Source: Polyangiales bacterium
Lineage (GTDB): Bacteria; Myxococcota_A; Polyangia; Polyangiales; Houyiibacteriaceae
Direction: 5' to 3'
Assembly (NCBI GenBank): GCA_046351215.1
Contig: JAXLYX010000019.1
Coordinates: 1 to 64,000 of the forward strand
Length of the DNA stretch: 64,000 bases
Part shown: one piece after another, positions 36,224 through 61,058 of the stretch
How the letters are laid out: every line of letters starts with the position of its first letter
Numbering within the stretch: the stretch's first letter is position 1
Position numbers and translations under genes: made by a program
The notes under the pieces: generated by a model
The model's input: the letters and a program-made list of their open reading frames with translations, nothing else
What the model was told of the DNA's origin: nothing
The model's database searches: none

Positions 36224-36258
36224 TCGCCACGAGAATCGGTGTAGCAAGCGTTCGCCTC

Positions 36259-36345
36259 GAAACGTGTTCCTCGGCCCTGTCGGACAGGATGAATGTGCAT
36301 CGAAACGTGTTCTCTCGCGCGTCCGGTCGTCCGTGGAACGTGTTC
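36259..36345. promoter_or_regulatory. Three direct copies of GAAACGTGTTC (third copy GGAACGTGTTC) at 36259, 36302 and 36336, in the divergent squalene-monooxygenase / squalene-synthase promoter region
   Basis: Repeats seen directly in sequence, spaced 43 and 34 bp apart, in the 230-bp divergent intergenic region. Candidate transcription-factor binding sites. Confidence 0.35.
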
Positions 36346-36475
36346 ACCGGATCTGCCTCGGAACCGCCCGCCGGATGACACCGGTTCAATCGTGTATCCC
36401 GACGGCTCGCCCGCGTCTTCCGCGGTTCGCCCGAATCCCCGGAGGGGCGTCTTGAAGACGGGCTCGCGGCGGACG

Positions 36476-37548: not shown

Positions 37549-37567
37549 GGGGTGCTAGCGTCGAGCG

Positions 37568-38572: not shown

Positions 38573-38636
38573 AGGGGGGCGCGCGAGCCGCTCGTTCCCC
38601 CTCTGGCGGCCCGCCGTCTCCCGACTACGATGCGGC

Positions 38637-40849: not shown

Positions 40850-41659
40850 ATGCGCCCCCTCCTCGCCGTCGTCCTCGCCTTCCTCTTCCTCGCCGTCCAC
40901 GCCTACGCCCAGGTCCCTCCCACGACCACGGATCCCCGGGCCGTGATGGAAGCCTCGTACCGTCTCGACGCGGGCGATCGCCTGGTCGCCCGCGTCCGGA
41001 TGACGATCACCGACGCGCAGGGCCGTGCCCGCGTTCGCGAGGTCGTGCTCCGCGCGATGGAGTTCCAGGGCGGTCGCAAGACGCTCATGCTCTTCGAGAG
41101 CCCGGCGGACGTCCGCAACACGGGGCTGCTCTCGATCGACCACGACGAAGGCTCCCGGCGCGACGAGCAATGGCTCTACCTCCCGAGCCTGCATCGCGCG
41201 ACGCGCATCGCGGCCTCGCGTCGCTCCGGCTCCTTCGTCGGCTCCGACTTCAGCTTCGCGGATCTCACGGCGGCCGATCCCGACGAGTACGAGCTGCGCA
41301 TGGTGCAGGCGGACGTCGCGGTGAACGGCGAGCCCTGCTGGCGCATCGAGGCCACGCCGCGCACGCCCGCCATCCGCGAGGAGACGGGCTACGAGAAGAT
41401 CGAGGTCTGGATCTCGAAGCGCAGCCTGCTGGCGATCCGGACGAAGGCGACGATGGGGCAGGGGAGGGCGAAGTACGTCGCGCTCGAGGACGTGCGCCGC
41501 GTCGACGGCATCTGGACCGCGCATCGGGTCGTCGCCCGCACCGTCCGCAACGACCAGCTCGAATCGCAGACGGTGCTCGAACGCCGCGACGTGCGGTACG
41601 GTGATGCGACCGTGACCGAAGCCGACTTCACCGTGCAGCGCCTCGAGCGGGGACTCTAG
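40850..41659 (+). CDS. Secreted LolA-like / outer-membrane-lipoprotein-sorting-family protein
   Basis: Signal peptide 'MRPLLAVVLAFLFLAVHAYA'. Size (269 aa) and pattern are typical of small LolA-fold proteins encoded beside MMPL/RND exporters. Family assignment by recall only. Confidence 0.5.
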   Translation: MRPLLAVVLAFLFLAVHAYAQVPPTTTDPRAVMEASYRLDAGDRLVARVRMTITDAQGRARVREVVLRAMEFQGGRKTLMLFESPADVRNTGLLSIDHDEGSRRDEQWLYLPSLHRATRIAASRRSGSFVGSDFSFADLTAADPDEYELRMVQADVAVNGEPCWRIEATPRTPAIREETGYEKIEVWISKRSLLAIRTKATMGQGRAKYVALEDVRRVDGIWTAHRVVARTVRNDQLESQTVLERRDVRYGDATVTEADFTVQRLERGL

Positions 41660-41664
41660 CGTCC

Positions 41665-43170
41665 ATGCGCCTCGGTGCGCTCCTCCCCCCGCTGCTCGTC
41701 GCGGCGTGCTTCGTGTCGTCCGCCGCTCGCGCGCAGACGGTGGAGAGCGCGAGCGATGCCGTCGGCTGGGGCGAGAGCGCGTCCGACGAGAGCGCGGGCG
41801 ATGCGGTCGGCTGGGGCGGGGGCGAGGCCACGACCGCCGAGTCGCCTTCCGAGCCCGTCGACGAGGCTTCCGCGGAGCGTGCGACCTCCGTCGGAGGCAC
41901 GGTCCGCGGCGACGGCGCGATGTGGACCGAGCGTCTCGGCGACAACGGCTTCGCGAAGGCGCGATTCTCCTACGATCTCTGGCTCCGCCATCGGCTGCGG
42001 CGAGGTCGGCTCGTCCTCGGGCTGCACGGCGAGCAGGACTTCGCCTACCTCTACGAGCCCGAGACCTACGATCAGCCGACGATCGACGTCTACGGGTCGG
42101 TGATCCGTGCGGGGGAGAGCTACCTCGCGCTCGAGACCGCGAACGCCGAGCTCGCGATCGGCACGCAGGTCGTCAATTGGGGCCACGGCGAGATGCTCTC
42201 GGTCGTCGATCTCGTGAATCCGCGCGACATGCGCGAGCCCGGCTTGATGGACCCGATGGACGTGCGCATCCCGGCCCTGATGAGCCGAGGCTCGTGGACG
42301 AACGGCCGCACGCGGCTCGAATTCCTCTGGCTCCACGAGGCCTACTTCCGCCTGCGCCCGCCGCCCTTCGGGACGTGGAGCCTCGTCCGCACGGCCGTGC
42401 TCACGGATCCGACCATCGCGATGACGCCGTTCCCTTCCTACGTCGACACCCGCGACGTCTACTGGCAGCAGAGCCCGCGACGCGTGTCGGTGGAGAGTCA
42501 GCAGGTGTTCGCGCGGGTGACACGGACGCTCGGACCGGTCGACCTCGGCTTCTACGCGGCCGACTACCTCGACCCGATCGGCACGGCGACGTTGCCCGAG
42601 GCGAGCGCCTGGGCGAACGCGGCCGTGTACGTGCCCCTCGACCATCTGCGCACGAACACGATCGGCGCCTCCGTCTCGTTCGTGCACCGGGATCTCTCGG
42701 GCTGGCTCGAGGTCGGCTGCGACATCCGGCGCCCGGTGAACACGGTGGATTTCGCCACGTTCGGCATCGGCACGGAGCGGCGCACGCTCTTCCGCTGGAC
42801 GCTCGGCGTCCGCTACCAGGGGCTCCGCGACACGACGATCGCCCTCGAATACGGGCAGGGAACGCAGCAGGGGCCCGGCGGGAGCGACTACCCGCTGCTC
42901 GTGCCGATCTTCCCCGCGACGCTCGCCGCGCGCGTCGAACGGAGCTTCGCACGGGAGCGATTGCGCGCGATGATCGTGGCCGCGCTCAACGGCGAGCACT
43001 TGGCGGGAGGTGGCTTCGCGCGCGCGCAGCTCGCCTACGTGCCGATCGACGGACTGACTCTCTCGATCGGCTACGCGATCTACTTCCCGACCGACACACC
43101 GTCCCTCGTCTGGGGCTTCACGACGAACGATCGCTTGATGGTCGGAGTCCGTTACGATTTCGCTCGTTGA
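41665..43170 (+). CDS. Secreted protein, probable outer-membrane beta-barrel (DUF1302-like?)
   Basis: Signal peptide 'MRLGALLPPLLVAACFVSSAARAQ'. Alternating beta-strand-like composition. The C-terminus 'GVRYDFAR' lacks a terminal Phe, so the barrel call is tentative. Confidence 0.45.
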   Translation: MRLGALLPPLLVAACFVSSAARAQTVESASDAVGWGESASDESAGDAVGWGGGEATTAESPSEPVDEASAERATSVGGTVRGDGAMWTERLGDNGFAKARFSYDLWLRHRLRRGRLVLGLHGEQDFAYLYEPETYDQPTIDVYGSVIRAGESYLALETANAELAIGTQVVNWGHGEMLSVVDLVNPRDMREPGLMDPMDVRIPALMSRGSWTNGRTRLEFLWLHEAYFRLRPPPFGTWSLVRTAVLTDPTIAMTPFPSYVDTRDVYWQQSPRRVSVESQQVFARVTRTLGPVDLGFYAADYLDPIGTATLPEASAWANAAVYVPLDHLRTNTIGASVSFVHRDLSGWLEVGCDIRRPVNTVDFATFGIGTERRTLFRWTLGVRYQGLRDTTIALEYGQGTQQGPGGSDYPLLVPIFPATLAARVERSFARERLRAMIVAALNGEHLAGGGFARAQLAYVPIDGLTLSIGYAIYFPTDTPSLVWGFTTNDRLMVGVRYDFAR

Positions 43171-43281: not shown

Positions 43282-43569
43282 ATGACCGGCAGCCCCATCC
43301 ATCCGACGGACGACGGCCTCGCGGTCGAATGGCTGATGTCGCTCCTCGCTTCCACCGGGGACATCTACGTCCGTCCCATCGCCGGCGGTCCGACGATGGA
43401 GACGTCGCTGCGCGAGGAGCTCGGGCTCGACTCCATCGGGATGGTGGGCGTCTTCTACGCGGTGGTCGACGAGCTCGGTCTCGACGCCGACGAGCGCGTC
43501 GTGGCGGACTGGCGCACGGTCGCCGACGTGGTGCGCTTCGCACGGAGCGGAGCCGAAGGAGCGGCATGA
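43282..43569 (+). CDS. Acyl carrier protein
   Basis: 'LGLDSIGMVGV' phosphopantetheine-attachment (DSx) motif, 95 aa, strong Shine-Dalgarno GGGAAAGGAA. Stop overlaps the next gene (ATGA). Confidence 0.75.
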   Translation: MTGSPIHPTDDGLAVEWLMSLLASTGDIYVRPIAGGPTMETSLREELGLDSIGMVGVFYAVVDELGLDADERVVADWRTVADVVRFARSGAEGAA

Positions 43570-44981
43570 CGAACGCGCCTCCGTGGAAGACGGTCGCGCT
43601 CGATCCCGATGGACGTCGGCGCAGCGAGCCGATCCTCGCAGGGCTCCCCGAGGTGCCTCCGCTCTCGGTCGTCGTGCTCGCCGTCGCCGATCCCGCGTTC
43701 CTGGTGGCGGGCTACGAAGCGGTGCTCGCCCGGGAGGCGATCCCGCTGCTCCTGCACGGCACCACGCCGCTCGCGCTCGCGCGGCGGATGGTCGAGCGGG
43801 TCGGCGCCGCGGCCCTCCTGCATGCGCCCCTCGAGGGGGATCCCCACGTCGAGACCGCCCCGGCGGGAAAGGCCCGACTGCCGGAGCGCGGACATCTGCT
43901 CTGCACGAGCGGCACGACGAGCAAGTCGGGCGAGCCGAAGGTCTACTTCTTCCCCGAGGCCCGGGCCGAGGCGAACGCCCGCGCGCATCTCGCTTCCCTC
44001 GGCCTCGCCGACGCGCGCGGTCTCCGCATCCTCCTGCCGCTGCCCGTGAGCCACGCGTTCGGTCTCGTCTGCGGACATCTCGCGGCGCGGGCGACGGGCT
44101 CGACGCTCCTCGCGTTCACGAGCACGCCCGATCCCGCGACGTTGCTCGAGGTCGCGGCGCGCGAGCAAGCCCAGGTGCTCCACCTGACCCCGCCCATGGT
44201 GCGACTGCTCGCGCGGCGTCACGCGCGCAGAGCCGCCCCCGCGCTGCCCGAGCTCTCGCTCGTCGGCGTGGGCTCGGCGCCGAGCACGGCGGGCGAGATA
44301 CGAACGCTCCACCGGCTCTTCCCCGCGTCGCGCATCGTCGCGACGTACGGGCTCACGGAATGCGGACCCCGCGTGGCGACGTTCCAGGCCGGGACCGCCG
44401 AGCATCCCTCGATGCTCCTCGACGTCGACGACGCCGCGCAGGTGCCCCTCGGCGAGCCGCTCGCGGGCGTCCGGCTCGCGCTCGAGGACACAGGCTCCGA
44501 TGGCGTCGGAGAGCTCGTCGTGCACACGCCTTACGTCGCCACCGGACGCCTCGTCGACGGCGCGCTCGAGCCCATGCCCGCCGGTCCCTTCCGGACGCGA
44601 GACGCCGCGCGTCGCGAGGCCTACGGCGGGATCACCCTCCTCGGTCGCATGGACGGAACCATCGTCCGAGGCGGGACCAACGTGTATCCGACGAACGTCG
44701 AGCCGCTCGTCGAGGACGTGGCAGGCGTCACCGGCGTCTGCCTCGTCGGTCAGCGCTCCCCGACCTACGGAGAGGTCCCCGTGCTCGTCTGCGAGGTCGC
44801 GGCCGGGACGCACGAAGAAGAGCTCCGTCGGTCGATCGAGGCGCGGCTCGCCGACGAGCTCCCGCCGACCGATCGCCCCGTCGAGATCCGCTTCGTGCGC
44901 ACGCTGCCGCGCACCTCGCTCGGCAAGGTGATCCGCGCCGAGGTGAAGTCCAGGCTGGAGGCCCCGCATGGCTCTTGGTGA
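43566..44981 (+). CDS. AMP-dependent synthetase/ligase (adenylate-forming enzyme, short form)
   Basis: 'LLCTSGTTSKSGEPK' (AMP-binding motif I), 'ATYGLTECG', 'GELVVHTPYVATG', 'TRDAARREAYGGITLLGRMD' (motif with hinge Asp), 'SLGKV' terminal Lys. Confidence 0.75.
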   Translation: MTNAPPWKTVALDPDGRRRSEPILAGLPEVPPLSVVVLAVADPAFLVAGYEAVLAREAIPLLLHGTTPLALARRMVERVGAAALLHAPLEGDPHVETAPAGKARLPERGHLLCTSGTTSKSGEPKVYFFPEARAEANARAHLASLGLADARGLRILLPLPVSHAFGLVCGHLAARATGSTLLAFTSTPDPATLLEVAAREQAQVLHLTPPMVRLLARRHARRAAPALPELSLVGVGSAPSTAGEIRTLHRLFPASRIVATYGLTECGPRVATFQAGTAEHPSMLLDVDDAAQVPLGEPLAGVRLALEDTGSDGVGELVVHTPYVATGRLVDGALEPMPAGPFRTRDAARREAYGGITLLGRMDGTIVRGGTNVYPTNVEPLVEDVAGVTGVCLVGQRSPTYGEVPVLVCEVAAGTHEEELRRSIEARLADELPPTDRPVEIRFVRTLPRTSLGKVIRAEVKSRLEAPHGSW

Positions 44982-45999
44982 TCGGCACGCCTCGCTCGGC
45001 GGGAAGGGCGTCGCGATCCGCGGCATCGCCCATCGCCTCGGCTCGCGGAAGGTGACGAACCAGGACATCATCGACGAGCATCGCATCCGCCTGAAGGACG
45101 CGTGGGTGCGCGAGAACATCGGCATCTCCGAGCGCCATTGGGTCGGGCCGCACGAGTCGACCGCGACGATGGCGGCGGAGGTCTGCGCCGAGCTCGTCGG
45201 GAACGCGGGGCTCGCGCCGGCGGCAGTCGATCGCCTGATCGTGGCGACCGTCTCTCCCGAGGTGATCACGCCCTCGACCGCCTGCATCACGCAGTCGATC
45301 TTCGCGCCGGGCACGGCCTTCCCCTGCATGGATCTCGTCGCCGCCTGCGGAGGCTTCCTCTACGCGCTCGACGTCGGCAGGCGCTGCGTACAGACGGGCG
45401 ATCGGAACGTCCTCGTCGTCGCCTCGGAGGTGCGGAGCGCCTTCCTCGACAAGCAGGATCGGCGCACGGTGATGCTCTTCGGCGACGGCGCCGCGGGCGT
45501 GCTCCTCACGCCGGCCCGAGAGGGCGAGGTCGGCATCGTCGACACCCGCCTCTTCGCGGACGGTCGCTTCTGGGAGGCGATCTCGGTGCCGGCAGGCGGC
45601 GTGCGGCGGCCTGCGTCCGCGGAGACGGTCGCGGAGAAGGCCCACTCGATCACGATGAAGGACGGAGCCGCGATCTTCGAGCGAGCCGTCGCCGAGATGA
45701 CGGAGCTCGTGAAGGCGATGGTGCTCGGCCACGGCGCCACGCTCGACGAGGTCGACTTCTTCGTCTTCCACCAGGCCAGCGTGAACATCGTGAGGCGCGT
45801 GCTCGAGGCCCTCGGGATCCCCGAGGAGAAGACCTGGATCAACTTCCCCCGCGTCGGGAACTGCACCGCCGCTTCCGTGCCGATCGCGCTCTCCGAGGCC
45901 GTGCGCGCAGGTCGGGTGAAGCGGGGCGATCTCGTGTGCTCCGTCGCGACCGGAGGTGGGTTCACCGCCGGGACGGCGCTCTTCCGCTGGGAGGTCTGA
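44968..45999 (+). CDS. FabH-like 3-oxoacyl-ACP synthase III / OleA-like thiolase-fold condensing enzyme
   Basis: Cys-His-Asn triad contexts 'MDLVAACGGFLYAL', 'FVFHQASVNI', 'RVGNCTAASVPIAL'. 343 aa. Confidence 0.85.
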   Translation: MALGDRHASLGGKGVAIRGIAHRLGSRKVTNQDIIDEHRIRLKDAWVRENIGISERHWVGPHESTATMAAEVCAELVGNAGLAPAAVDRLIVATVSPEVITPSTACITQSIFAPGTAFPCMDLVAACGGFLYALDVGRRCVQTGDRNVLVVASEVRSAFLDKQDRRTVMLFGDGAAGVLLTPAREGEVGIVDTRLFADGRFWEAISVPAGGVRRPASAETVAEKAHSITMKDGAAIFERAVAEMTELVKAMVLGHGATLDEVDFFVFHQASVNIVRRVLEALGIPEEKTWINFPRVGNCTAASVPIALSEAVRAGRVKRGDLVCSVATGGGFTAGTALFRWEV

Positions 46000-46000: not shown

Positions 46001-46828
46001 ATGAAGGGAACGCGACGCATCGAGGACTGTCGGGTGTGGGTGACGGGCGGGCGCCGCGGTCTCGGATACGCGTTCGCCGCGCATTTCGCCTCGCTCGGAG
46101 CCGAGGTCCACATCACCTCCCGCGAGCCGGGGAGCGCGGCCGCCGTCGAGGCCGTCGACTCCCTCGCCCACGCGGCGCGCGCCCACGCGGTCGGCCACGG
46201 CACGCAGGCGAAGCCCGTCACGGTCCACGGCCTCGACATGGCCGATCCCGCGAGCCTCGACGCGCTCTCGGACGCGATCCGCCACCATCCGCCGCACGTC
46301 CTCGTCCACGCGGCCCACGTCTTCGCCGACCACGTGCCGATCGTCGGTCGGAAGCCGGAGGACTTCGCCCGAGGTCTCTCGTCGAACGTCGTCTCCGCCT
46401 ACACGATCCTCCGCTCCGCGGCGCGCGCCATGGCGCGCGAGGGGCTCGGACGCATCCTCGTCGTGGGCAGCTTCGCGACGGTGAAGCCGGGCCTCGGACA
46501 GGTCGGCTACGTGACGGAGAAGGCGGCGCTCGAGGGCATGGTCCGCTCCTTCGCCGCGGAGTTCGCGGCGCGCGGCGTCCACGTGAACGTCGTGCATCCG
46601 GGCATCTGCGACACCGAGAACGTCCGCGACCGCGTGCCCGAGGTGATCCGCGACGCGTACGCCGCACGGACCAGCGCCGGGAGGCTGCTCTCGCCGAAGG
46701 AGGTCGTGCTCGCGTCGTTCTCGCTGTGCGATCCCCGGCACGCCGGGATCACGGGCCAGTCGCTCGCGATCACGGGCGGCGCCGATCTCGCGGGCCTCGT
46801 GGCCGGCACCTCGGGGGCGGAGACGTGA
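46001..46828 (+). CDS. Short-chain dehydrogenase/reductase (SDR), ketoreductase-like
   Basis: 'VWVTGGRRGLGYAFA' dinucleotide fold, 'YVTEKAALEGM' (YxxxK), 'VHPGICDT'. GGGAGG Shine-Dalgarno sequence, 1-nt gap after the KAS III stop. Confidence 0.8.
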   Translation: MKGTRRIEDCRVWVTGGRRGLGYAFAAHFASLGAEVHITSREPGSAAAVEAVDSLAHAARAHAVGHGTQAKPVTVHGLDMADPASLDALSDAIRHHPPHVLVHAAHVFADHVPIVGRKPEDFARGLSSNVVSAYTILRSAARAMAREGLGRILVVGSFATVKPGLGQVGYVTEKAALEGMVRSFAAEFAARGVHVNVVHPGICDTENVRDRVPEVIRDAYAARTSAGRLLSPKEVVLASFSLCDPRHAGITGQSLAITGGADLAGLVAGTSGAET

Positions 46829-47637
46829 GCACGCGCGGCGCGATCGTCCGCTCCATCGTGCTCTTGCCCCCGCTCGGCCACGACGCGGCGCTCTACGCGC
46901 CGCTCGCGCGCGCGATCGGCGATCGGCTCGAGGTCGTCGCGCTCGACTATCCCGGCTTCGGCGAGGAGCCACAGGGCTTCGACTACGAGGCTCCCGAGCT
47001 CCTCGAACGGCTCGCCGGGCACTTCGCCCAACGCATCGACTCGCTCGGGATCGAGCCGGTCTTCCTCGGCGGCGTCTCGCTCGGCGGCACGCTCTCCTTC
47101 CCCCTGGGCTCGAGGCTCGCGCGAGCGCCCGAGGGAAGGCTCCTCCTCGCGTCGGGAGGTCTTCCCGTGGCGATGGTCCGGAAGGACGCCGTGCGCACGG
47201 CGATGAACGAGCTCGGCGCCGTCGGCTTCGCGCGCAGGCACCTCGGGCTCGACCATCCGGACCTCGACGCGTCGAGCCTGCGGACCCACATCGGTCGCAT
47301 GACGGAAGACGTCGCGCGCTACTTCGAGCACTACTTCCACACGACGTGGGAGGGTCCGGCGTTCGAAGCCCGCGCGAACGCCTCCGTCGCGATGCTGAGA
47401 GCCGCCCTCGACGTCGACTTCCGCGAGGCGATGCGCGATCCACGCCCCCGTTCGGTGGTGATCTGGGGCGACCGCGATCGGATCTTCTCGCGATCGTTCG
47501 TCGACCGTCTCGTCGCGACGCTCGCACGCCCTTCGCTCCACGTCCTCGACGGCGTGGGGCACTACCCCCCGCTCGAGGCTCCCGACGAGGTCGCACGGAT
47601 CGTCGTCGAGGCCCTAGAAGGAAAGGCAGAAGCATGA
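46825..47637 (+). CDS. Alpha/beta-hydrolase fold protein (thioesterase/OleB-like?)
   Basis: 'FLGGVSLGG' nucleophile elbow (GxSxG), C-terminal 'LDGVGHYPPLE' His. GTGA overlap with the SDR gene. Confidence 0.7.
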   Translation: MSTRGAIVRSIVLLPPLGHDAALYAPLARAIGDRLEVVALDYPGFGEEPQGFDYEAPELLERLAGHFAQRIDSLGIEPVFLGGVSLGGTLSFPLGSRLARAPEGRLLLASGGLPVAMVRKDAVRTAMNELGAVGFARRHLGLDHPDLDASSLRTHIGRMTEDVARYFEHYFHTTWEGPAFEARANASVAMLRAALDVDFREAMRDPRPRSVVIWGDRDRIFSRSFVDRLVATLARPSLHVLDGVGHYPPLEAPDEVARIVVEALEGKAEA

Positions 47638-48326
47638 CCGACCACAGCAGCCATCCCGTGATCGCCCGGTTCGATCGCGTCCTCGAGGAGGCGGTCGGCC
47701 GGATCGAGGACAGTCCCTTCGTGAAGGACCTCGCCGCCGGCAAGCGCGTGCTCCCCCTCTACGAGGCCTATCTGCGCGAGGCGTACCATTTCGTGCGCCT
47801 GACCTCGTCGTTCACGCCGCTCGCGGCGCGGCGCATGGATCCGGAGCTCCTCGGCCTCCGCCAGTGGATCCTCCACCACTCGGCCCACGAGATGGGTCAC
47901 GAGCTGATGGCGCTCCAGGACCTCGAGCTCCTCGGCCAGTCGCGCGAGTCGGTGAAGGCGAGCCAGCCGCGCCCCGGCACCTGGCAGTGGGTCCACTTCT
48001 TCTACTACCAGGTCGTCGAGCGTCCGCCGTTCGCCGCCATGGGCGTCCTCTACTTCCTCGAGGGGATGGCCGCGAAGCTCGCGCCCATCGTCGTGCAGCA
48101 GGTGCTGCCCTCGCTCGAGGGCGAGAAGAAGCGGGCGACGCTCTTCGTGCGCGAGCACGGCGAGCTCGACCTCGAGCACACGGACGAGCAGAAGGACGTG
48201 CTCGTGAAGTACTGCACGAATCCGTTCGACCAGGACGTCGTCTGCGAGACGATCCTGCAGGCCAGCTACGCCAAGCGCGCGATGATCGATCACATCGCCG
48301 AGACCGTGGGGAACCGAGCGCCATGA
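47634..48326 (+). CDS. Heme-oxygenase-like fold protein (TenA/PqqC/CADD-type; candidate HO-like non-heme di-iron oxidase)
   Basis: 230 aa, all-helical composition with carboxylate/His pairs 'HHSAHEMGHE', 'YFLEGMAAK', 'VREHGELDLEHTDE'. ATGA overlap on both sides. Family call is pattern-based and tentative. Confidence 0.5.
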   Translation: MTDHSSHPVIARFDRVLEEAVGRIEDSPFVKDLAAGKRVLPLYEAYLREAYHFVRLTSSFTPLAARRMDPELLGLRQWILHHSAHEMGHELMALQDLELLGQSRESVKASQPRPGTWQWVHFFYYQVVERPPFAAMGVLYFLEGMAAKLAPIVVQQVLPSLEGEKKRATLFVREHGELDLEHTDEQKDVLVKYCTNPFDQDVVCETILQASYAKRAMIDHIAETVGNRAP

Positions 48327-48559
48327 CCGTCACCGAATCCGACCTCAAGAAGATGATCTCGGCGATCTGCCGCGTGCCCGAGGAACGCATCGCGCGCGAG
48401 ACGCGCTTCGTCGCCGACCTCCACATGGACTCGCTCGCGAGCCTCGATCTCCTCACGGAGCTCGAGGAGGTCCACGGCGTCGTGATCACGCAGGAGGAGG
48501 CACGCCACCTCCAGACCTTCGGTCACCTGCTCGATTTCCTCGAGAAGCGCGAAGACTGA
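48323..48559 (+). CDS. Acyl carrier protein (second copy)
   Basis: 'ADLHMDSLASLDLLTELEE' DSL motif, 78 aa. ATGA overlap with the upstream gene. Confidence 0.75.
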   Translation: MTVTESDLKKMISAICRVPEERIARETRFVADLHMDSLASLDLLTELEEVHGVVITQEEARHLQTFGHLLDFLEKRED

Positions 48560-48563: not shown

Positions 48564-51140
48564 GTGTCGTCCCTCGATCCCACGAGCGTGCTCGGACGCG
48601 CGGAGAGCTTCTTCCGCGCCTGGGCGCGCGTGGTCGTCCGCCATCCGAAGCTGGTGCTCTTCCTCTCCCTGCTCTTCACGGCGGGCATGGGGGTGCTCGC
48701 CGGGACGAGGCTGCGCGTCGACAACAGCACGGAGGGATTGCTCGGCTCCGATTCGCCGTCGATGGGCGTGCTCGACGCCCTCACGCGCGACTTCGGACCG
48801 GACAAATCCTTCGTGATCGTGGTCGAGGGCGACGTCTTCTCGAGACCCTTCCTCGAGAAGCTGAGCCGATTCCACCATGCGCTCGAGGGGCTCGAGCTGG
48901 AGCTCCCGACGCTCGGCCTCGACCGGCAGGCGCGGCGTGCGCTCGCGCGCGGCGAGGCCGTCGAGGCACGGGTCGTGCGGGAGCGCAGCGAGCCGGTCGC
49001 GGCCTCCGACGATCCCTTCGCCGGTATCGAGGGTTTCGACGCGCCCGCGGCCGGAGCGGCTCCCGCCGTGCCCCGTCCGACCCGCGGCGCCCACGTCGTC
49101 TTCGAGGACGTGACCTCGCTCGTGAACGTCCGCGACACCTCGTGGCAGGACGGTTCGCTCGCGATCGAGGAGCTGCTCGAGACCATCCCGTCCGACGGCG
49201 AGCTCCCCGCGTTCCGTCGTCGTGTGCTCGCAAACCCCTCCTTGGTCGGCGAGGTGGTCGATCGCGGGGGGAGGAACGCCGTCCTGCTCGTCCGCCTCCG
49301 TCCGATGGACGAGAAGGACTCCGCGAAGGTCCGGGACCGCCTCGGCGCTCTCGCGCGCTCGTACGAGGCGCCCGGGTTCCACGTCCGGATCGGCGGCATC
49401 GCCTCCCTCGAGGTCGCGCTGAACCGGATCATGGAGCGCGACATCTCGGTGGTCTTCTCGGCCGCGCTCGTCGTGATGCTCGGCCTCCTCTACTTCCTCT
49501 TCCGCAGCGTCTACGGCGTCGTCGGTCCCATCCTCGTCGTGCTCCTCTCGGTGGTCGCGACGCTCGGAGCGATGGCCCTCTTCGACGCGCCGATGACGGG
49601 CGTGACGAGCGTGCTCTCGTCCTTCCTCCTCATCATCGGCCTCGCGGATGCCGTCCACGTGCAGACGGCCTATCGCGACCTGCGGCGGAAGGGGGCCGGC
49701 AACGAGGACGCGATCGTCGAGGCGATCGCCGAGGCCGCCTGGCCGATCGCCTTCACGGCGATCACCGACGTCGCCGGTCTCCTCTCCTTCCGCACCTCGA
49801 GCCTCCGCTCGGTGCAGGACATGGGGACCTACGCCTCCTTCGGCATCACGGTGGCGTTCGTCCACTCGCTCTGCTTCCTGCCGGCCTTCCTCACCTTCCA
49901 TCGGAAGGCGACGCTCGGCGAGGAGCGGTCCGCCGCGAAGAAGGACGCTCTCGATCGCTTCCTCGGGCGCTGCGAGGCGGCGTCGCGGCCGGTGTACCGC
50001 GACGGTGTGGTCTCGCGTCGGCGCAGGAACCTCGTGCTCTTCGCGACCGCGGGGCTCACCGTCCTCGCGCTCTTCGGCTCGGCGAGGATCCGCGCCCACC
50101 ACGATCCCCTGAGCTGGCTCCCTCGCTCGAACCCCGACCGGCAGATCACCGAATACCTCGACCATCACCTCGGAGGCTCGGGCACGGTCTCGATCGTGGT
50201 GACGGCCGCGCCGGGGCATACCGTGCGCGAGCGCGACCTCTTGCTCCGCCTCGAGCGTCTCGAGCGTCACGTGCTCGCGTATCGGGCCGCGGACGATCAC
50301 CGTCCGATCGCGACGCACGTCTCGAGCGTCCTCGACCTCGTCCGCGAGAGCTGGATGGCGGTGCACGACGACGAGGCCAGGTACCGTGTCCTCCCCGATA
50401 CGCAGCAGGGCGTGAGCGACACCTTCACGCTCATCGAGGGCGCGGGTCCGCACGAGCTCTCGAAGATCGTGACGGCCGATTTCGAGAAGACGGTGATGAC
50501 GGTCCGCGTCCGTTGGCGCGAGGCGGGGGCGTACATCCCCTTCACGAGGCATGTCGAAGAGGGCGTCCGCCGCTACGTCGGGAATGCCGCACGCATCGAG
50601 CTCACGGGTACGGTGCCCGCGAACTACGAGGTCGTCTCCTCGCTGAACTCGGACCTCCTCTCGAGCTTCGGGACGGCCCTCCTCAGCATCGCGATCACGA
50701 TGATCCTCGTCGTCTGGGACGTGAAGCTCGGGCTGCTCTCGCTCGTGCCGAACCTCCTCCCGATCCTGATGATGTCCGGCCTGATGGGAGCGCTCGGGAT
50801 CCCACTCGACCTCATGAGCCTGCTCGTCGGCTCGATCGCGATGGGCCTCGTCGTGGACGACACGATCCACGTGCTCCACTACTACACGATGAAGAAGGAC
50901 GAGCTCGGTCCCGAGCGGGCGGTCCGCTTCCTCTTCGAGTCGACCGGGAGGGCCCTCGTCGGCACGAGCGTGACGCTCTCCGCGGGCTTCCTGCTCTACG
51001 TGCTCGCGACGATGAGCAACGTGCAGCGCTTCGGCGGGCTGCTCGGCGCGACGATCCTCCTCGCGCTCTTCGGCGACCTCCTGATCACGCCGGCGCTCCT
51101 GCGCACGATCGCGGAGGGCGAGCCGCTGCCGGAGGACTAG
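48564..51140 (+). CDS. MMPL/RND-superfamily lipid exporter (12 TM, two periplasmic loops)
   Basis: Two blocks of about 6 TM helices each ('VVFSAALVVMLGLLYFLF...LIIGLADAVHV' and 'LLSIAITMILVVWDV...VDDTIHVLHYY'), about 860 aa. GTG start 5 bp after the ACP stop. Confidence 0.8.
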   Translation: MSSLDPTSVLGRAESFFRAWARVVVRHPKLVLFLSLLFTAGMGVLAGTRLRVDNSTEGLLGSDSPSMGVLDALTRDFGPDKSFVIVVEGDVFSRPFLEKLSRFHHALEGLELELPTLGLDRQARRALARGEAVEARVVRERSEPVAASDDPFAGIEGFDAPAAGAAPAVPRPTRGAHVVFEDVTSLVNVRDTSWQDGSLAIEELLETIPSDGELPAFRRRVLANPSLVGEVVDRGGRNAVLLVRLRPMDEKDSAKVRDRLGALARSYEAPGFHVRIGGIASLEVALNRIMERDISVVFSAALVVMLGLLYFLFRSVYGVVGPILVVLLSVVATLGAMALFDAPMTGVTSVLSSFLLIIGLADAVHVQTAYRDLRRKGAGNEDAIVEAIAEAAWPIAFTAITDVAGLLSFRTSSLRSVQDMGTYASFGITVAFVHSLCFLPAFLTFHRKATLGEERSAAKKDALDRFLGRCEAASRPVYRDGVVSRRRRNLVLFATAGLTVLALFGSARIRAHHDPLSWLPRSNPDRQITEYLDHHLGGSGTVSIVVTAAPGHTVRERDLLLRLERLERHVLAYRAADDHRPIATHVSSVLDLVRESWMAVHDDEARYRVLPDTQQGVSDTFTLIEGAGPHELSKIVTADFEKTVMTVRVRWREAGAYIPFTRHVEEGVRRYVGNAARIELTGTVPANYEVVSSLNSDLLSSFGTALLSIAITMILVVWDVKLGLLSLVPNLLPILMMSGLMGALGIPLDLMSLLVGSIAMGLVVDDTIHVLHYYTMKKDELGPERAVRFLFESTGRALVGTSVTLSAGFLLYVLATMSNVQRFGGLLGATILLALFGDLLITPALLRTIAEGEPLPED

Positions 51141-51144: not shown

Positions 51145-52584
51145 TCAGAACTCGAGCGAGCTTCCGAGGTAGAGGCTCACGGCGTACGTGGAGCTCTTCG
51201 TGGTCTGGCCGGGCAGGGCGCAGAAGTTCACGCCGACGGCGGCGAGGCAGCGCGTGTCGTAGCCGACGGCGAGGCTGCGGACCGAGCCGGATCCGCCCGC
51301 GAAGCGGAGGGAGAGCGTCGTGCCGAACACGAGCGGCTTCTCGCGAGGCGCGGGCGCTCCCTCGGCGGGCGGCTCGACCGGGTCCGGGCTCCCTCGGAGG
51401 TAGGTGCGGGTCTGGAGGCCCACGGTGAAGCCGTAGAGGCTCACCGGGCTGTTGAGCCCTCCGTTGGGTTGATCGGTGCGATTGGTGAACACGCCGCCGC
51501 CGATCGAGAGGCCGCGGCTCACCTCGTGGATCATTCCCGCACGTACGTTCCACGTGGGCGAGAGGTCGACGAGGAGCTCCTTGTTCTCGAGACCCATGCG
51601 GTACTCGAATTCCACGTCGATCCAGCCGTGGTCGTAGTACCACGCGAAGCCGCCCGTGATCTGGAGCGGCTGGAGCAGACCGAAGCCCCCGTTGGGACGC
51701 ACGGGAGAGACCGACGAGGTCGAGACTGCCGCGCCGGGATCGCCGGGATAGAGGACATTCGGCGGCGCGACGAACGACACGGTCGTCGCGATGCGTTGCT
51801 CGGGCGTCTCGGCGATCACCATGGCGGGGCCCCGCAGCATCAGACCGAAGCGGAGCTGCGGGAGGATCTCCCACTGCAGGCCGACTCCCGGCTGGATGCC
51901 CCAGCGGATGGGGGAATCCTTGATCTGCTCCGTGACGCCCGCCTGGTACCCGCCCGTGACGCTCATCGTCACGACCTGGTTGTTCACGTAGCTCTCGTAG
52001 ATCCCGTAGAGGTGGAATCCGAGGCGGAGCTTCGGAGTGACGGACCATCCGAGGGTCGGCCCGACGTGGTAGCGCACCCGGTTCTGATCCGAGTCGTAGT
52101 ACGAGAGGATGTCGAGCTGGCCGTAGTAGGGATCCTCGACCTGCGCCGAGAAATCCGCCGACAGCCAGCCGTAGCCGTATTGGGTCACGAAGACGCCGAG
52201 CCCGAGCGTCAAGCCCGGCTTCAGCGCCGTCGCCATCACGACGCTCGGCGAGAGGATCAGTACCTGCGTCGACGAGAGGTCCTGGGCCTCGAGCTGCTGG
52301 CCGTCGATCTGGAACGCGAAGCCATCGTCGACGTGGTCGAAGCGGATCCCGTAGAGCGACGCGCTCACGTTGAACTTCGTGCGTCGGTTCAGGGCGAGGC
52401 CCGCCGGGTTGTACCAGGCCGAGCCGGGATCGCTCGACGTCGCCACGACGGCTCCGGCGGCGACCGCGCCCTCGTCGCCCTGCGCGAAGGAATAGCCGTC
52501 GGCGCGCGCGATGGCGGGAGCCGTCACGCACGACGCCGCCGCGAGGGCGATGGCCGCCCACCTCCCGATCCGCTTTCCGTGCAT
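51145..52584 (-). CDS. FadL/OmpP1-like outer-membrane hydrophobic-compound transport protein
   Basis: Signal peptide 'RWAAIALAAASCVTAPAIARA', beta-rich sequence, C-terminal '...LYLGSSLEF' ending in Phe. Convergent with the MMPL gene (4-bp gap). Confidence 0.6.
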   Translation of the reverse strand: MHGKRIGRWAAIALAAASCVTAPAIARADGYSFAQGDEGAVAAGAVVATSSDPGSAWYNPAGLALNRRTKFNVSASLYGIRFDHVDDGFAFQIDGQQLEAQDLSSTQVLILSPSVVMATALKPGLTLGLGVFVTQYGYGWLSADFSAQVEDPYYGQLDILSYYDSDQNRVRYHVGPTLGWSVTPKLRLGFHLYGIYESYVNNQVVTMSVTGGYQAGVTEQIKDSPIRWGIQPGVGLQWEILPQLRFGLMLRGPAMVIAETPEQRIATTVSFVAPPNVLYPGDPGAAVSTSSVSPVRPNGGFGLLQPLQITGGFAWYYDHGWIDVEFEYRMGLENKELLVDLSPTWNVRAGMIHEVSRGLSIGGGVFTNRTDQPNGGLNSPVSLYGFTVGLQTRTYLRGSPDPVEPPAEGAPAPREKPLVFGTTLSLRFAGGSGSVRSLAVGYDTRCLAAVGVNFCALPGQTTKSSTYAVSLYLGSSLEF

Positions 52585-52705: not shown

Positions 52706-53170
52706 TCAGCCGATCCGCGCCAGCAAGCCCCCCTTCGAGACGGGCTCGCCGGCGGCGACCGGCAGCGCGATCACCGTGCCCGCCGTCGGAGCGGCGATCT
52801 CGAGCTCCATCTTCATCAGCTCGACGACGAGGAGCGGCTGACCCTTCGTCACGACGTCGCCGACCGCGACGAGGAGGCGCGCGACCGTGCCGGCGGTCTT
52901 CGCCTTCACGGTCCCGTCGCTCGACTCGCCCGAGGCGCGTGCGCCGGGGCCCGCGCCGCCGCCCGGCTCGAGCGGACCGAACCGACGCGTCGCGGAGCCG
53001 GTCTGCTCGACGTCGAGCCAGAGCTTGCCGTGGGCGTCCCGCGAGGCCCGCGTCCGACGTCCGTCCGCGTGGAAGAGCAGGAACGCGCTCGGCCCGAGCC
53101 GGAGCACCCGGAGGACACCCGGGAGACGAGCGAGCTCGGAATCGCTCAGGATCGATGCGCGAGCTTCCAT
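52706..53170 (-). CDS. Biotinyl (biotin carboxyl carrier) domain ORF, probably the C-terminal part of the acyl-CoA carboxylase alpha subunit, displaced into another frame
   Basis: 'PLLVVELMKMELEIAAPTAGTV' (E-[AL]-M-K-M biotinylation motif) at the C-terminus. First ATG at 53170 overlaps the biotin-carboxylase ORF by 25 nt in another frame. Confidence 0.5.
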   Translation of the reverse strand: MEARASILSDSELARLPGVLRVLRLGPSAFLLFHADGRRTRASRDAHGKLWLDVEQTGSATRRFGPLEPGGGAGPGARASGESSDGTVKAKTAGTVARLLVAVGDVVTKGQPLLVVELMKMELEIAAPTAGTVIALPVAAGEPVSKGGLLARIG

Positions 53171-54612
53171 CGCAGCCCTCCTCCGGGATGGCCCGTCGTT
53201 CGCGTGGGTTCGTGCAGATCCTCGACGAGGAGCGACTCGGCGGCGAAGCCCGGCGGCGTGCTCTCTTCCGTCAGCGCTCCGAGGTCCTTCTCGAGCGTGC
53301 GCGTGTCGTGCACGTCGCCCGCGAAGGGCGGATGCGCGGCGAGCGCGCGCAGGAGGTCGAGGTTCGTCCGCACCCCGTGCACGTGCGCGTGATCGAGCGC
53401 GTGGGCGAGGCGCGAGAGCGCGTCGGCGCGGTCGTGTCCCTGCACGATCAGCTTCGCGATCATCGGATCGTAGTGGGGCGCGATGCTCGCTCCCTCGCGC
53501 ACAGCGAGGTCCCAGCGGACGAAGGGCATCGAGGGGAGGTCGAGGTGGTGCACGAGGCCGGCATCGGGCGCGAAGCCGTTCGCGGGATCCTCGGCATAGA
53601 GCCTCGCCTGGATCGCGTGCCCGCGCGGCGCGAGCGGATGCATCATCAGCTCCTCGCGACGGATGCCGAGGGCCTCGCGGAGCTGCCATTCGACGAGGTC
53701 GATGCCGAGGCGGAGCTCCGTGACGGGATGCTCCACCTGGATGCGCGGATTCATCTCGAGGAAGTAGATCCGGCCTTCGTCGGGCGCGTGGAGCAGCTCG
53801 ATCGTCCCCGCGTTCCGGTAGCCGCGCCTCGCGAGCGCCGCTGCGAGCGCTCCGTACACCGGCTCGAGGAGGGCGAGCGCAGCGTCCGAGGCGGGCCCCT
53901 CCTCGATGACCTTCTGGTGGTTGCGCTGCAGGCTGCAGTCGCGGCTGTCGAGGATGCGGACCCCGTCGCCGAGCACGCCGAAGACCTGCAGCTCCACGTG
54001 GCGCGCGTGGACGAGGTAGCGCTCGGCGAGCAGCGAGTCGTCCGAGAAGAGCTCCTTCGCCCGACGCCGCAGCTTCGCCACGGCCTCGTCGAAGCCCTCG
54101 GGGCGCTCGACGACGAGGTTGCCGCGGCCTCCGCCGCCCGCGCTCGCTTTGAGCAGCAAGGGAAACGCCTCCGCCGGAGGCCGGACGAAGCCGCCCGCGC
54201 CGTCGGGCTCGAGAGGGATCCCGAGGTCGGCGAGGCCCGCGTCGCGCGCGAGCGCCTTCGCCGTGACCTTGTGGGCCATCTCCTCGAGGACCTCGGCGGG
54301 AGGTCCGACGAAGACCGCTCCCGCTTCGGCGACCGCTCGCGCGAGCGAGGCCGATTCCGAGAGGAAGCCGTAGCCCGGATAGACGTGGGTCGCCCCGGTC
54401 GCGGCGATCGTCGCGCGGAGCACGTCGAGGTCGTTGAACGAGCGCGAGGCCTCGGACGCGCCGTGGAGATGGAGGGCGTCGGCGACGCGGGCCGCCGGCG
54501 TTTCGACGTCGGCGGGCGTGAGGAAGAGGACGGTCGGCACGCCGAGGCGACGGGCCGCGAGGCAGGCGCGGAGCGCGATCTCGCCACGGTTCCAGACGAG
54601 GAGGCGCGTCAT
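53146..54612 (-). CDS. Biotin carboxylase (ATP-grasp) component of an acyl-CoA carboxylase
   Basis: 'MTRLLVWNRGEIALR', 'HVYPGYGFLSE', 'GGGGRG' (here 'ASAGGGGRGN'), 'EMNPRIQVEHPVTE'. ATGA overlap with the upstream acyl-CoA dehydrogenase stop. 488 aa, ends where the biotinyl-domain ORF begins. Confidence 0.85.
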   Translation of the reverse strand: MTRLLVWNRGEIALRACLAARRLGVPTVLFLTPADVETPAARVADALHLHGASEASRSFNDLDVLRATIAATGATHVYPGYGFLSESASLARAVAEAGAVFVGPPAEVLEEMAHKVTAKALARDAGLADLGIPLEPDGAGGFVRPPAEAFPLLLKASAGGGGRGNLVVERPEGFDEAVAKLRRRAKELFSDDSLLAERYLVHARHVELQVFGVLGDGVRILDSRDCSLQRNHQKVIEEGPASDAALALLEPVYGALAAALARRGYRNAGTIELLHAPDEGRIYFLEMNPRIQVEHPVTELRLGIDLVEWQLREALGIRREELMMHPLAPRGHAIQARLYAEDPANGFAPDAGLVHHLDLPSMPFVRWDLAVREGASIAPHYDPMIAKLIVQGHDRADALSRLAHALDHAHVHGVRTNLDLLRALAAHPPFAGDVHDTRTLEKDLGALTEESTPPGFAAESLLVEDLHEPTRTTGHPGGGLRWKLAHRS

Positions 54613-56393: not shown

Positions 56394-57360
56394 GTCCACC
56401 ATCGTCCACGTCCTCCGAGAAGAGAGAGGGGAGCTCGGCGCCGAGCGTCGCGGAGGCGGCGCGGGCGAGACCCTCCCAGAGATCCGAGCGTCGCCCCGCG
56501 ACGTGCGGCGTGAGCAGCACGCGGGGATGGGCGAGGAGCGCGCCGTCGGCCGGGTAGGGCTCCGGCGTCGCGACGTCCGCGAGGTAGCGCGCCTCCGGGG
56601 CACGCTCGAGGAAGGCGAGCAGGTCGTCTTCGCGGAGCAGATCGCCGCGGGCGACGTTCACCACGATCGCTCCCCGAGGGAGGCGCTCGAAGAAGCGCTC
56701 GGTCGAGAAGAGCGCGCGCGACTCGCCGGTGCTCGGCAGCGCGAGGACGACGACGTCCCCGTGCGCGACGACCGCCTCCGTCTCGTCGAAGCCGTGGATC
56801 CGGGGCTCGTGCGCGCTCGCCTCGTGGGGCGTGTGCGAGACGACGTGGACCTCGCGGAAGAGGGGGCGGAGGCGGGCGACGACGCCTCGGCCGACGTGCC
56901 CGTGTCCGAAGACGACGGCTTCCATCGTGCGTGGATCGCGCGCGACCTCGTGCGCGGCCGGAGCCCAGCCGGCGCCGAGGCTGCCCGAGAGGACGCCGCG
57001 GAGCCCGGCGAGCACGAGGAAGAGCGCGTGGTCCGCGACCGAGTCCGCGTTCACGCCCGCGGCGGAGTCGAAGCGGATGGCGAGGCCCGCCTTGTTCGTG
57101 GCGGTCTCCCAGCCTTCCGGCACTCCGGCCTGGAGGAAATACGCATAGCGGAGACGCTCCGAACGCTTCGCGAAGCTCGGTGGGAGCGCCCAGCCGACGT
57201 AGACGTCCGCGTTCCGGAGCGCGGCGCCGAGCCCCGCGACCTCGCGAACGACCTCGAGCGCGAAGCCCGCGGGCAGGGCGGCCCGGAGCGCCGCCTCGAA
57301 GGAGGCGGGCAGGTCGAAGAAGGGGTCGCGGCTCGACGCGTGGAGGACGACGTTCGGCAC
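56383..57360 (-). CDS. D-isomer-specific 2-hydroxyacid dehydrogenase family protein
   Basis: 'VVFGHGHVGRGVVARL' NAD fold, 'VNVARGDLL', 'LLTPHVAGRR' (catalytic His). Confidence 0.8.
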   Translation of the reverse strand: MPNVVLHASSRDPFFDLPASFEAALRAALPAGFALEVVREVAGLGAALRNADVYVGWALPPSFAKRSERLRYAYFLQAGVPEGWETATNKAGLAIRFDSAAGVNADSVADHALFLVLAGLRGVLSGSLGAGWAPAAHEVARDPRTMEAVVFGHGHVGRGVVARLRPLFREVHVVSHTPHEASAHEPRIHGFDETEAVVAHGDVVVLALPSTGESRALFSTERFFERLPRGAIVVNVARGDLLREDDLLAFLERAPEARYLADVATPEPYPADGALLAHPRVLLTPHVAGRRSDLWEGLARAASATLGAELPSLFSEDVDDGGPHP

Positions 57361-57414
57361 TTTACGCCTTTGAGGGAATGCGGAGTAATCCTATCGGGTC
57401 GCCAGTGTAGGTTC

Positions 57415-60333: not shown

Positions 60334-60360
60334 GCGCGCGGGCTAGCACGATCGGAGGGG

Positions 60361-60792: not shown

Positions 60793-61058
60793 GTCCCGAT
60801 CTACGTCCGACGCCTCGCCGGCATTCCCGTAGCGCAGGATACGGACACCGCGTCATCCGAGAGTTACGACGCACGGACGAGGACGAGCGGCCGACGAATC
60901 CCCCAATCATTCCGATGGCAATTGACCGGGACGGACAGGAAATCCCAGCCCTGGGGTGTTCCTGTCGACGACACGGTCCTACACGGTCACCAGCGCCTCG
61001 GGGGCCCCGGCCCCCCGCGCGAACGACGGCCTCGCGGCCGTATCCTCGATCGAGACCG

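Follow-up and report, generated by a model that had tools for sequence, protein, structure and literature searches.

Results

A candidate heme-oxygenase-like dimetal oxidase gene

We analysed a 64,000-nucleotide stretch of contig JAXLYX010000019.1 from a Polyangiales bacterium, called the window below, in which a gene at 47634-48326 on the plus strand very probably encodes a heme-oxygenase-like dimetal oxidase (HDO) with a complete predicted site of three histidines and three carboxylates. Since the GC content of the window is 71% and chance open reading frames (ORFs) are plentiful (74 of at least 60 aa in 16 kb), the length of an ORF alone is no proof of coding here. We take 47634-48326 to be a genuine coding frame because of its codon-position composition, with a GC of 0.93-0.98 at third and 0.34-0.41 at second positions, which is the signature of true genes in this genome, and because its product has 80 database homologues, the best at E=1e-46. 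The initial annotation of this DNA had described a 230-aa gene with the motifs HEMGHE and EHGELDLEH, and the translation bears this out: it is uninterrupted over 230 aa, with the motifs at residues 85-90 and 174-182. The start is an ATG preceded by a Shine-Dalgarno-like stretch, GAAGGAAAGG. The ATGA coupling reported on either side of the gene is exact, in that the stop codon of an upstream alpha/beta-hydrolase gene (47635-47637) overlaps the HDO ATG (47634-47636), and the ATG of the gene for a downstream acyl carrier protein (ACP), ACP2 (48323-48325), overlaps the HDO stop (48324-48326).

The product matches PF14518 (Haem_oxygenas_2, 'iron-containing redox enzyme') at 54.2 bits against a cutoff of 28.9. 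From an alignment of 45 family sequences, AlphaFold2 returned a model with a pLDDT of 95.4 and a pTM of 0.92, which Foldseek matched in the PDB to 3DDE at the top (TM-score 0.82), then to Chlamydia CADD (0.80-0.87) and UndA (0.80), with BesC, TenA and PqqC lower. The initial annotation had proposed an all-helical protein of heme-oxygenase-like fold; the model is all-helical, with 12 helices, and has that fold, at TM-scores of 0.80-0.83 to 3DDE, CADD and UndA.

Residues E86, H89, E143, H175, D179 and H182 are invariant in the 45-sequence alignment, in which identity goes down to 39%. In an alignment of the family profile to PDB sequences they fall on the E-L-N-H, E and H-x3-D-x2-H residues of UndA and on their equivalents in CADD, and they form the pattern E-x2-H, E, H-x3-D-x2-H of a 3-His/3-carboxylate set. 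At the aligned positions we take the ligands to be E101/H104/E159/H194/D198/H201 in UndA and, presumably, E81/H88/E142/H174/D178/H181 in CADD. Those of the mangotoxin acetylenase MboA are E86/H89/E143/H172/D176/H181, with D90 as an occasional extra ligand (PMC13185094), and are numbered nearly as in HDO, in which the invariant E90 corresponds to MboA D90. The candidate metal site foreseen from His/carboxylate pairs is present as an invariant set aligned to the ligands of all three enzymes. R67, R76, W78, H82, S83, E90, E174, Y43 and Y46 are also invariant. By analogy with the family, HDO would bind metal, most likely two irons, and would react with O2.

The gene cluster in the window

HDO belongs to a larger cluster than the initial annotation had described, with a second carrier protein, an acyl-CoA dehydrogenase-type flavoprotein, a carboxylase, a GH3 enzyme, an LbH transferase and exporters. 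Genes were framed by third-position GC together with Pfam and NCBIfam matches, and the features are as follows.

40850-41659, plus strand: LolA-like periplasmic lipid/lipoprotein carrier (PF17131; PF17131 genes also lie at loci L016 and L006)
41665-43170, plus strand: predicted outer-membrane protein of the DUF1302 family (PF06980), in this lineage's version of the cluster only
43282-43569 (start approximate), plus strand: CP1, a second small carrier protein with the motif LGLDSIGMV (from its translation; the L009 homologue matches PF00550)
43566-44981, plus strand: AMP_c, a short adenylate-forming ligase whose ATG overlaps the CP1 stop (PF00501, PF13193)
44968-45999, plus strand: FabH-type ketoacyl-ACP synthase III (KAS III) condensing enzyme (PRK09352, 285 bits against a cutoff of 249), with the Cys127/His/Asn triad intact
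46001-46828, plus strand: FabG-like SDR, probably a 3-ketoacyl reductase (PF13561, PF00106; FabG model NF009466, 132 bits)
46825-47637, plus strand: alpha/beta-hydrolase (PF12697, PF00975), with its triad of Ser85 (GVS85LG, GxS85xG), His246 and Asp intact
47634-48326, plus strand: HDO, 230 aa (PF14518, AlphaFold2, Foldseek, invariant ligand candidates)
48323-48559, plus strand: ACP2, a dedicated 78-aa acyl carrier protein with the motif DS36L (PF00550), overlapping HDO by ATGA
48564-51140, plus strand: MMPL/HAE3 RND-type lipid exporter (PF03176, TIGR00921), starting 4 nt past ACP2
51145-52584, minus strand: weakly matched FadL/TodX-like outer-membrane channel for hydrophobic compounds (PF03349, 26.5 bits, below cutoff)
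52706-54612, minus strand: biotin carboxylase (53146-54612) and biotin carboxyl carrier protein (BCCP; 52706-53170) in two overlapping frames
54609-56402, minus strand: flavoprotein of the acyl-CoA/acyl-carrier-protein dehydrogenase family (ACAD; PF00441, PF02770, PF02771)
56383-57360, minus strand: D-isomer-specific 2-hydroxyacid dehydrogenase (tblastn to the L009 homologue; NF041369)
57415-58830, plus strand: acyl-CoA carboxylase carboxyltransferase subunit (PF01039, 310 bits)
61059-61853, plus strand: membrane-anchored left-handed beta-helix (LbH, hexapeptide) acyltransferase with two N-terminal transmembrane helices, resembling the Pls/PosA terminal domain
61856-63397, plus strand: GH3-type acyl-acid amido synthetase, an OlsH homologue (PF03321, PF23571, PF23572; NF052613, 187 bits against 620)
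63390-64000, plus strand: ICMT/PEMT-type membrane methyltransferase, cut by the window end (tblastn, 53% to the L004 homologue; NF040696, 54 bits, below cutoff)

The plus-strand operon runs LolA-like, DUF1302, CP1, AMP_c, FabH, SDR, hydrolase, HDO, ACP2 and MMPL, and from CP1 to MMPL neighbouring genes either overlap or lie no more than 4 nt apart. The minus-strand operon runs 2-hydroxyacid dehydrogenase, ACAD, biotin carboxylase, BCCP and FadL-like. The carboxyltransferase gene stands by itself, and LbH, GH3 and the methyltransferase make up a further group on the plus strand. Catalytic motifs are intact in FabH, the hydrolase, the SDR (TGxxxGxG and Y170xxxK), AMP_c (TSGTTSKSGEPK and the C-terminal Lys) and ACP2. 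The best specific match of AMP_c is the acyl-ACP ligase AmcH (NF058661, 117 bits, below cutoff). ACP2 scores 49 bits with TIGR00517, below the cutoff of 70, and is for this reason not the housekeeping AcpP. The hydrolase could be a thioesterase or an O-acyltransferase; its similarity to OlsI, BioH and PcaD is weak, and its identification as OlsI was rejected, the match being partial and scoring 18.7-34 bits against 385. The LbH protein also resembles the acyl-ACP transferases of the LpxA/LpxD type. The closest PDB relatives of three partner enzymes were generic and uninformative: aryl and fatty CoA ligases for the ligase, mixed hydrolases for the hydrolase and short-chain ACADs for the ACAD.

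Several further observations concern the surroundings of these genes. The biotin carboxylase and BCCP frames of the window are either a true split gene or the result of a frameshift or assembly error; the Bdellovibrionota loci L003 and L005-L007 have a single fused protein of 575 aa. The 2-hydroxyacid dehydrogenase and carboxyltransferase genes diverge from starts about 54 bp apart (57360-57415), so that both promoters, if they exist, must overlap. Between the carboxyltransferase and LbH genes lie a 501-aa protein with two partial SDR-like halves (58837-60342, minus strand) and a 163-aa ORF without a family match (60361-60852, minus strand), which have a counterpart only in the identical contig L018. 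Farther upstream, three adjacent genes at 33318-37417, namely an SRPBCC/polyketide-cyclase-like gene (minus strand), a squalene epoxidase gene (PF08491; 34694-36343, minus strand) and a squalene/phytoene synthase gene (36293-37417, plus strand), form what is by its family matches a sterol-type gene set in a myxobacterium-like genome. An NAD-dependent DNA ligase ORF follows (38391-40742, plus strand; 783 aa); its adenylation domain begins only at residue 154, and about 180 nt of it are shared with the GST-like ORF upstream (37559-38572), so that ligA probably starts farther downstream than listed.

Conservation of the neighbourhood

The cluster proteins were compared by tblastn with 13 genome loci, two further loci and 10 metagenome loci. 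At all 16 of the loci compared for this feature, drawn from three phyla, HDO is followed by an ACP gene at a distance of -8 to +37 nt, and the same 4-nt overlap occurs in three lineages: the window, L004 (Pseudomonadota) and L011/12/16 (Bdellovibrionota). The lipid and ACP context that the initial annotation had read from the two flanking genes was therefore right, and the HDO-ACP pairing appears from these gene arrangements to be obligate and often translationally coupled. On all contigs of sufficient length, FabH (45-67% identical across all loci), the SDR, the hydrolase, LbH, ACAD and the carboxyltransferase accompany the pair, and these surroundings are kept in Myxococcota, Bdellovibrionota and Pseudomonadota. 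The hydrolase gene is kept in all loci. CP1 (conserved as 'orf83' in 9 loci), the 2-hydroxyacid dehydrogenase, the biotin carboxylase-BCCP, GH3 (also in L001, L004, L006, L011/12/16 and L020-26), the ICMT-like methyltransferase, MMPL (also in L002, L003 and L016) and the PF17131 LolA-like gene are recurrent without being universal; those for MMPL and LolA-like proteins recur in distant loci. Neither the DUF1302 protein nor the FadL-like channel had a homologue in the other loci compared, the latter also being confined to this lineage. In the Bdellovibrionota and Pseudomonadota loci, the LbH gene is directly upstream of HDO, often overlapping it, and an extra FAAL-type ligase and a PRK09274/OleC-like ligase are present.

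A cluster of about 20 genes is thus found in Sandaracinaceae, Bacteriovoracaceae/Halobacteriovoraceae and some Pseudomonadota. A metagenome scan seeded with the LbH protein recovered, among true orthologues, this cluster only; it contained no HDO-less versions where contigs were long enough, the Sandaracinaceae-type contigs being too short for this comparison. At two Bacteriovoracaceae loci (L009, 14880-17979; L010, 6042-9145) the ACAD, 2-hydroxyacid dehydrogenase, CP1 and carboxyltransferase operon runs into genes for two FtsX/MacB-type permeases and an NADPH-dependent FMN reductase. MMPL is absent from both loci, with the permeases in its place, which suggests an alternative exporter and, in the reductase, a possible electron source for HDO.

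Spread of the HDO family and its sister clades

A profile search of 1.84 billion representative proteins returned 1611 relatives at E<=1e-3, 618 at E<=1e-10 and 9 at E<=1e-30, and scores drop from 338 bits for the family representative to at most 176 for the next relatives. Judged by these scores, the HDO clade is small, tight and rare. Named carriers are Sandaracinaceae, Bacteriovorax, Bacteriovoracaceae, Halobacteriovoraceae and other Bdellovibrionota, together with one Pseudomonadota metagenome-assembled genome and Ketobacter. The cluster is almost confined to lineages of predators, the Sandaracinaceae among the myxobacteria and the Bacteriovoracaceae/Halobacteriovoraceae. Over 3.9 kb the window matches metagenome contig WBZQ01008920.1 with 100% identity, and its composition and best hits are Sandaracinaceae-like. 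Two unusual proteins were seen among the homologues: the family member P0035 (361 aa, 56% identical, found on 6 contigs, the longest 21 kb) is annotated as a fusion of a TsaA-like domain (PF01980) and HDO, and P0079, an amino-acid-permease fragment joined to HDO on an 882-nt contig, is probably an artefact.

The closest relatives outside the family are natural fusions to acyl-adenylating enzymes (four), to enoyl-CoA hydratase and to N-acyl-amino-acid synthases of the FeeM type (two), with FkbM methyltransferase and DUF3419 as other partners. The fusions with acyl-adenylating, enoyl-CoA hydratase and FeeM partners link this part of the HDO superfamily with the chemistry of activated fatty acyl groups and, taken with the GH3, hydrolase and LbH proteins of the cluster, of N-acyl-amino-acid lipids. 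Among distant relatives, fused proteins (P0288, P0305, P0315, P0312, P0236, P0221, P0331, P0281, P0248 and P0201) are of the types AMP-binding-HDO (about 700 aa), enoyl-CoA hydratase-HDO, FeeM/GNAT-HDO, FkbM-HDO, HDO-DUF3419 and tandem HDO-HDO, and none of them appears to have been characterised. HDO as the oxidative decarboxylase of the Fee pathway proved wrong, as a flavoenzyme, FeeG/CndG, carries out that step (PMC11959600).

The closest solved protein is 3DDE (Sden_3740 of Shewanella denitrificans), a structural-genomics 'DUF with heme-oxygenase-like fold' whose function is uncharacterised. It is related to HDO by phmmer (E=3e-21), by profile (E=1e-30) and by the Foldseek TM-score of 0.82, and shares the ExxH / E / HxxxDxxH ligand pattern and the motif GHELMAL, whereas it does not have the segment SSFTPLAARR that is invariant in the HDO family. 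Its clade is separate and larger, with at least 229 proteins, and separate searches with the two clades did not retrieve each other. The neighbourhood also differs, with FMN_bind_2, DUF3419, RND, AMP-ligase, penicillin amidase and non-ribosomal peptide synthetase (NRPS) genes and no adjacent ACP. On account of the drop from 338 to at most 176 bits, the lack of mutual retrieval and the different neighbourhood, we do not place HDO in the 3DDE orthologous group. The 3DDE locus (L014/L015) reads FMN_bind_2, unknown, HDO, DUF3419, unknown, RND, AMP-ligase, penicillin amidase, carrier protein and a 2378-aa NRPS. It looks like a lipopeptide/NRPS cluster and offers a lead to the function of 3DDE.

Discussion

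Based on the conserved neighbourhood, we believe that HDO probably works in the lipid pathway encoded by this cluster and, with somewhat less assurance, that it oxidises an acyl intermediate of that pathway. That this intermediate is tethered to an ACP has, in our judgement, a little less than an even chance. As to the reaction, hydroxylation or desaturation is plausible though somewhat doubtful, and oxidative decarboxylation to an alkene, as was suggested initially, seems rather unlikely. Due to the homology of the GH3 protein to OlsH, the likeness of the LbH transferase to known acyltransferases and the fusions in sister clades, the predicted product of the cluster is an amide-linked lipid destined for export to the envelope, most likely one of the N-acyl-amino-acid type.

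We propose the following model for the pathway, in the order of steps that we infer. The AmcH-like ligase would load a dedicated acid onto CP1, a role that in other lineages would fall to FAAL with long-chain acids, and the cluster's own biotin carboxylase and carboxyltransferase would supply a (substituted) malonyl unit. FabH would condense this unit with the CP1-bound acyl group, and the FabG-like SDR would reduce the 3-keto group on ACP2. HDO would bind two Fe(II) and, with its substrate as the trigger for reaction with O2, would perform a two-electron oxidation of the acyl intermediate, that is, a hydroxylation, a desaturation or an oxidative decarboxylation, most probably while the intermediate is on ACP2 or freshly released from it. 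Attachment of the chain to an amine or amino acid may then fall to the LbH transferase and/or to the hydrolase plus GH3, a methyl group is possibly added by the ICMT-like methyltransferase, and the MMPL and LolA-like proteins would carry the product to the cell envelope. Two further ideas about the cluster are speculation: a mycolate-like logic, given FAAL, acyl-CoA carboxylase, condensation, reductase and MMPL, and a BioZ-like dicarboxylate logic. The quartet of AMP-ligase, thiolase, SDR and hydrolase had also raised an olefin/beta-lactone pathway like OleABCD for the window. This was ruled out, as the condensing enzyme scores as FabH (285 against the cutoff of 249) and no OleC-like ligase is present in the window; the OleC-like AMP_b (207 bits against a cutoff of 900) occurs in non-myxobacterial loci only.

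In its widest form, which we put forward tentatively and consider doubtful, our proposal is that the HDO clade comprises the first heme-oxygenase-like di-iron enzymes acting on a carrier-protein-tethered substrate, in an undescribed pathway for an exported envelope lipid of the N-acyl-amino-acid type, where they would modify an acyl-ACP in an oxygen-dependent step that leaves a hydroxyl, a double bond or, by decarboxylation, an alkene. Several points weigh against our reading of HDO and its pathway. In all substrate-bound HDO structures, a carboxylate or amine of the substrate is bound to Fe1 (PMC13108848). A plain acyl thioester would have no such ligand, unless the chain bears a second carboxylate or a hydroxyl, and a free acid or an N-acyl amino acid is therefore a real alternative. 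HDO is less than about 20% identical to every characterised HDO, so that the type of reaction cannot be transferred by homology. The assignment of the HDO family comes from sequence and predicted structure. HDO is acidic (pI 5.2-6.2), as are the ACPs, and a global charge complementarity between them found no support. Among the homologues and relatives, no natural fusion of an HDO to a carrier protein was seen. Furthermore, the set of ligases varies: Sandaracinaceae have AMP_c as the sole ligase, and other lineages have FAAL and an OleC-like ligase, with or without AMP_c. The pathway is thus not identical everywhere. Finally, the adjacency of HDO and ACP may reflect co-expression only.

This last point is also part of a rival that we consider unlikely, though it has much in its favour: the same di-iron HDO would act on a free carboxylate instead of an ACP thioester. 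The substrate could be a (3-hydroxy) fatty acid freed from ACP2 by the alpha/beta-hydrolase, with chemistry like that of UndA, or an N-acyl amino acid made by GH3, with its alpha-carboxylate on Fe1, and HDO would either hydroxylate it or decarboxylate it oxidatively to an enamide or alkene. Besides the Fe1 ligation just described, this would agree with the intact Ser-His-Asp triad of the hydrolase and its similarity to type II thioesterases, with the sister HDOs fused to FeeM N-acyl-amino-acid synthases and to enzymes that adenylate free acids, and with the use of free fatty acids by OlsH-type GH3 enzymes (PMC12493201), from which it follows that a free acid must exist in the pathway. N-acyl-tyrosines are also oxidatively decarboxylated in nature, albeit by a flavoenzyme (PMC11959600). 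However, the linkage of HDO to ACP, found at all 16 loci and often overlapping, is far tighter than that to GH3, which lies 13 kb from HDO in the window and is missing within 10 kb in several loci, and in Bdellovibrionota the HDO gene overlaps that of an LbH transferase of an ACP-dependent type as well. A substrate from the other half of the product, in which HDO would modify an amino-acid or amine head-group precursor before lipidation by N-oxygenation, desaturation or C-C cleavage, as do HrmI, BesC, SznF and PolF, we regard as improbable. The cluster does contain an amino-acid-conjugating GH3 enzyme and a methyltransferase, and many polar residues are invariant in the family (R67, R76, H82, S83, E90, E174, Y43 and Y46), but no amino-acid biosynthetic or ATP-grasp genes adjoin HDO, whose tightest partners are ACP, FabH, SDR and hydrolase, and the fusions in sister clades indicate acyl rather than amino-acid chemistry.

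Far less probable still, to the point that we give it almost no weight, is that HDO is a non-redox or self-sacrificing member of the fold, namely a TenA thiaminase II, PqqC or a p-aminobenzoate synthase of the CADD type. The resemblance is one of fold, with Foldseek TM-scores of 0.7-0.87, to which can be added the JGI label 'PQQ biosynthesis protein C' on many HDO homologues, a weak match to TIGR04305 and the conservation in the HDO family of the position of CADD Tyr43. The initial annotation had named a clear match to TenA/thiaminase II as grounds for refuting its reading, and there is no such match: PF03070 scores 18 bits, below its cutoff of 22, and Cys, the catalytic residue of Bacillus subtilis TenA, is absent from the invariant and near-invariant columns. 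No PqqC model is among the NCBIfam matches of HDO at E<=1, and pqq genes were not found in the window neighbourhood or in related loci. The self-sacrificing CtCADD and NePabS are the best fold match among characterised proteins (TM-score 0.80-0.87) and have the same six ligand positions; in contrast, Tyr27 and Lys152, the sacrificial residue and the amine donor of CADD, are not conserved in HDO, where the profile alignment places them on a variable V/Y/L/F/C column and on V/I, and TIGR04305 reaches 19.6 bits against a cutoff of 200. Neither TenA nor PqqC has a metal, whereas the HDO family retains all six ligand positions, and the neighbourhood is one of lipid metabolism, not of thiamin, PQQ or folate. 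Given these model scores and the missing catalytic residues, TenA, PqqC, CADD and canonical heme oxygenase were all ruled out.

We return to the oxidation of an acyl intermediate, for which the known HDOs offer partial parallels. UndA, the 1-undecene synthase of Pseudomonas, is an O2-using, lipid-active HDO that converts a fatty acid to a terminal alkene and CO2 (PMC13108848), and it shares with HDO the fold (TM-score 0.80) and all six aligned ligands, although the relationship is remote (profile E=2e-5, 13-14% identity). It acts on free C10-C14 acids, with the carboxylate on Fe1, whereas the substrate of HDO is one that we infer, and, unlike that of HDO, its gene has neither a dedicated ACP gene beside it nor a place in a multi-gene lipid cluster. 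MboA is the second-best PDB sequence match (profile E=5e-6); its substrate is the free tripeptide Leu-Ala-Arg, it requires the dedicated flavin/Fe2S2 reductase MboB, and its context is one of ATP-grasp ligases, as against the ACP and FabH around HDO.

For the cluster as a whole, the nearest parallel is with the OlsH/OlsI(/OlsG) pathway of Singulisphaera acidiphila. OlsH uses ATP to form N-acyl-ornithine out of ornithine and a free fatty acid, and adjoins the methyltransferase OlsG and the alpha/beta-hydrolase O-acyltransferase OlsI; its discoverers expect other N-acyl amino acids to be made by other bacterial GH3 proteins (PMC12493201). Both clusters place a GH3 homologue beside a membrane methyltransferase, both contain an alpha/beta-hydrolase, and the predicted product class is the same, an N-acyl-amino-acid membrane lipid. 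However, the GH3 proteins score 187, 159 and 110 bits against the OlsH equivalog cutoff of 620 and are homologous without being equivalent, and the Ols pathway has no HDO, dedicated ACPs, FabH, ACAD, carboxylase, LbH or MMPL. An HDO-family gene is found in a carrier-protein pathway in the case of AzsE ('iron-containing redox enzyme') from the azaserine cluster, which we compared by its description only. In that pathway an AMP-ligase and a carrier protein are accompanied by a KAS III, a thioesterase and an ACAD whose substrate is bound to a carrier protein, but its chemistry is hydrazine/diazo formation and not lipid synthesis, and AzsE is uncharacterised there (PMC10445470).

About a dozen HDOs have been validated, and the substrates of all of them are free fatty or amino acids or, in one case, a peptide (PMC13108848); putative HDOs are estimated at no fewer than 19,778 (PMC13185094). 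One more uncharacterised HDO is by itself not surprising. What is distinctive here is the obligate pairing with a dedicated ACP, the conservation of the cluster over three phyla and its almost wholly predatory-lineage distribution. Our literature search found no account of this cluster and no carrier-protein-dependent HDO, the closest item being AzsE.

If our proposal is true, the ACP-paired clade would widen HDO chemistry to thioester-tethered intermediates, a logic already used by the ferritin-like acyl-ACP desaturases, and the pairing would give a defined set of substrates with which to deorphanise an HDO. Furthermore, the cluster connects the newly found GH3/OlsH amide-forming route with dedicated fatty-acid tailoring and with export by MMPL and LolA-like proteins, and from it we predict that myxobacteria and predators of the Bdellovibrio kind have an envelope lipid not described so far.

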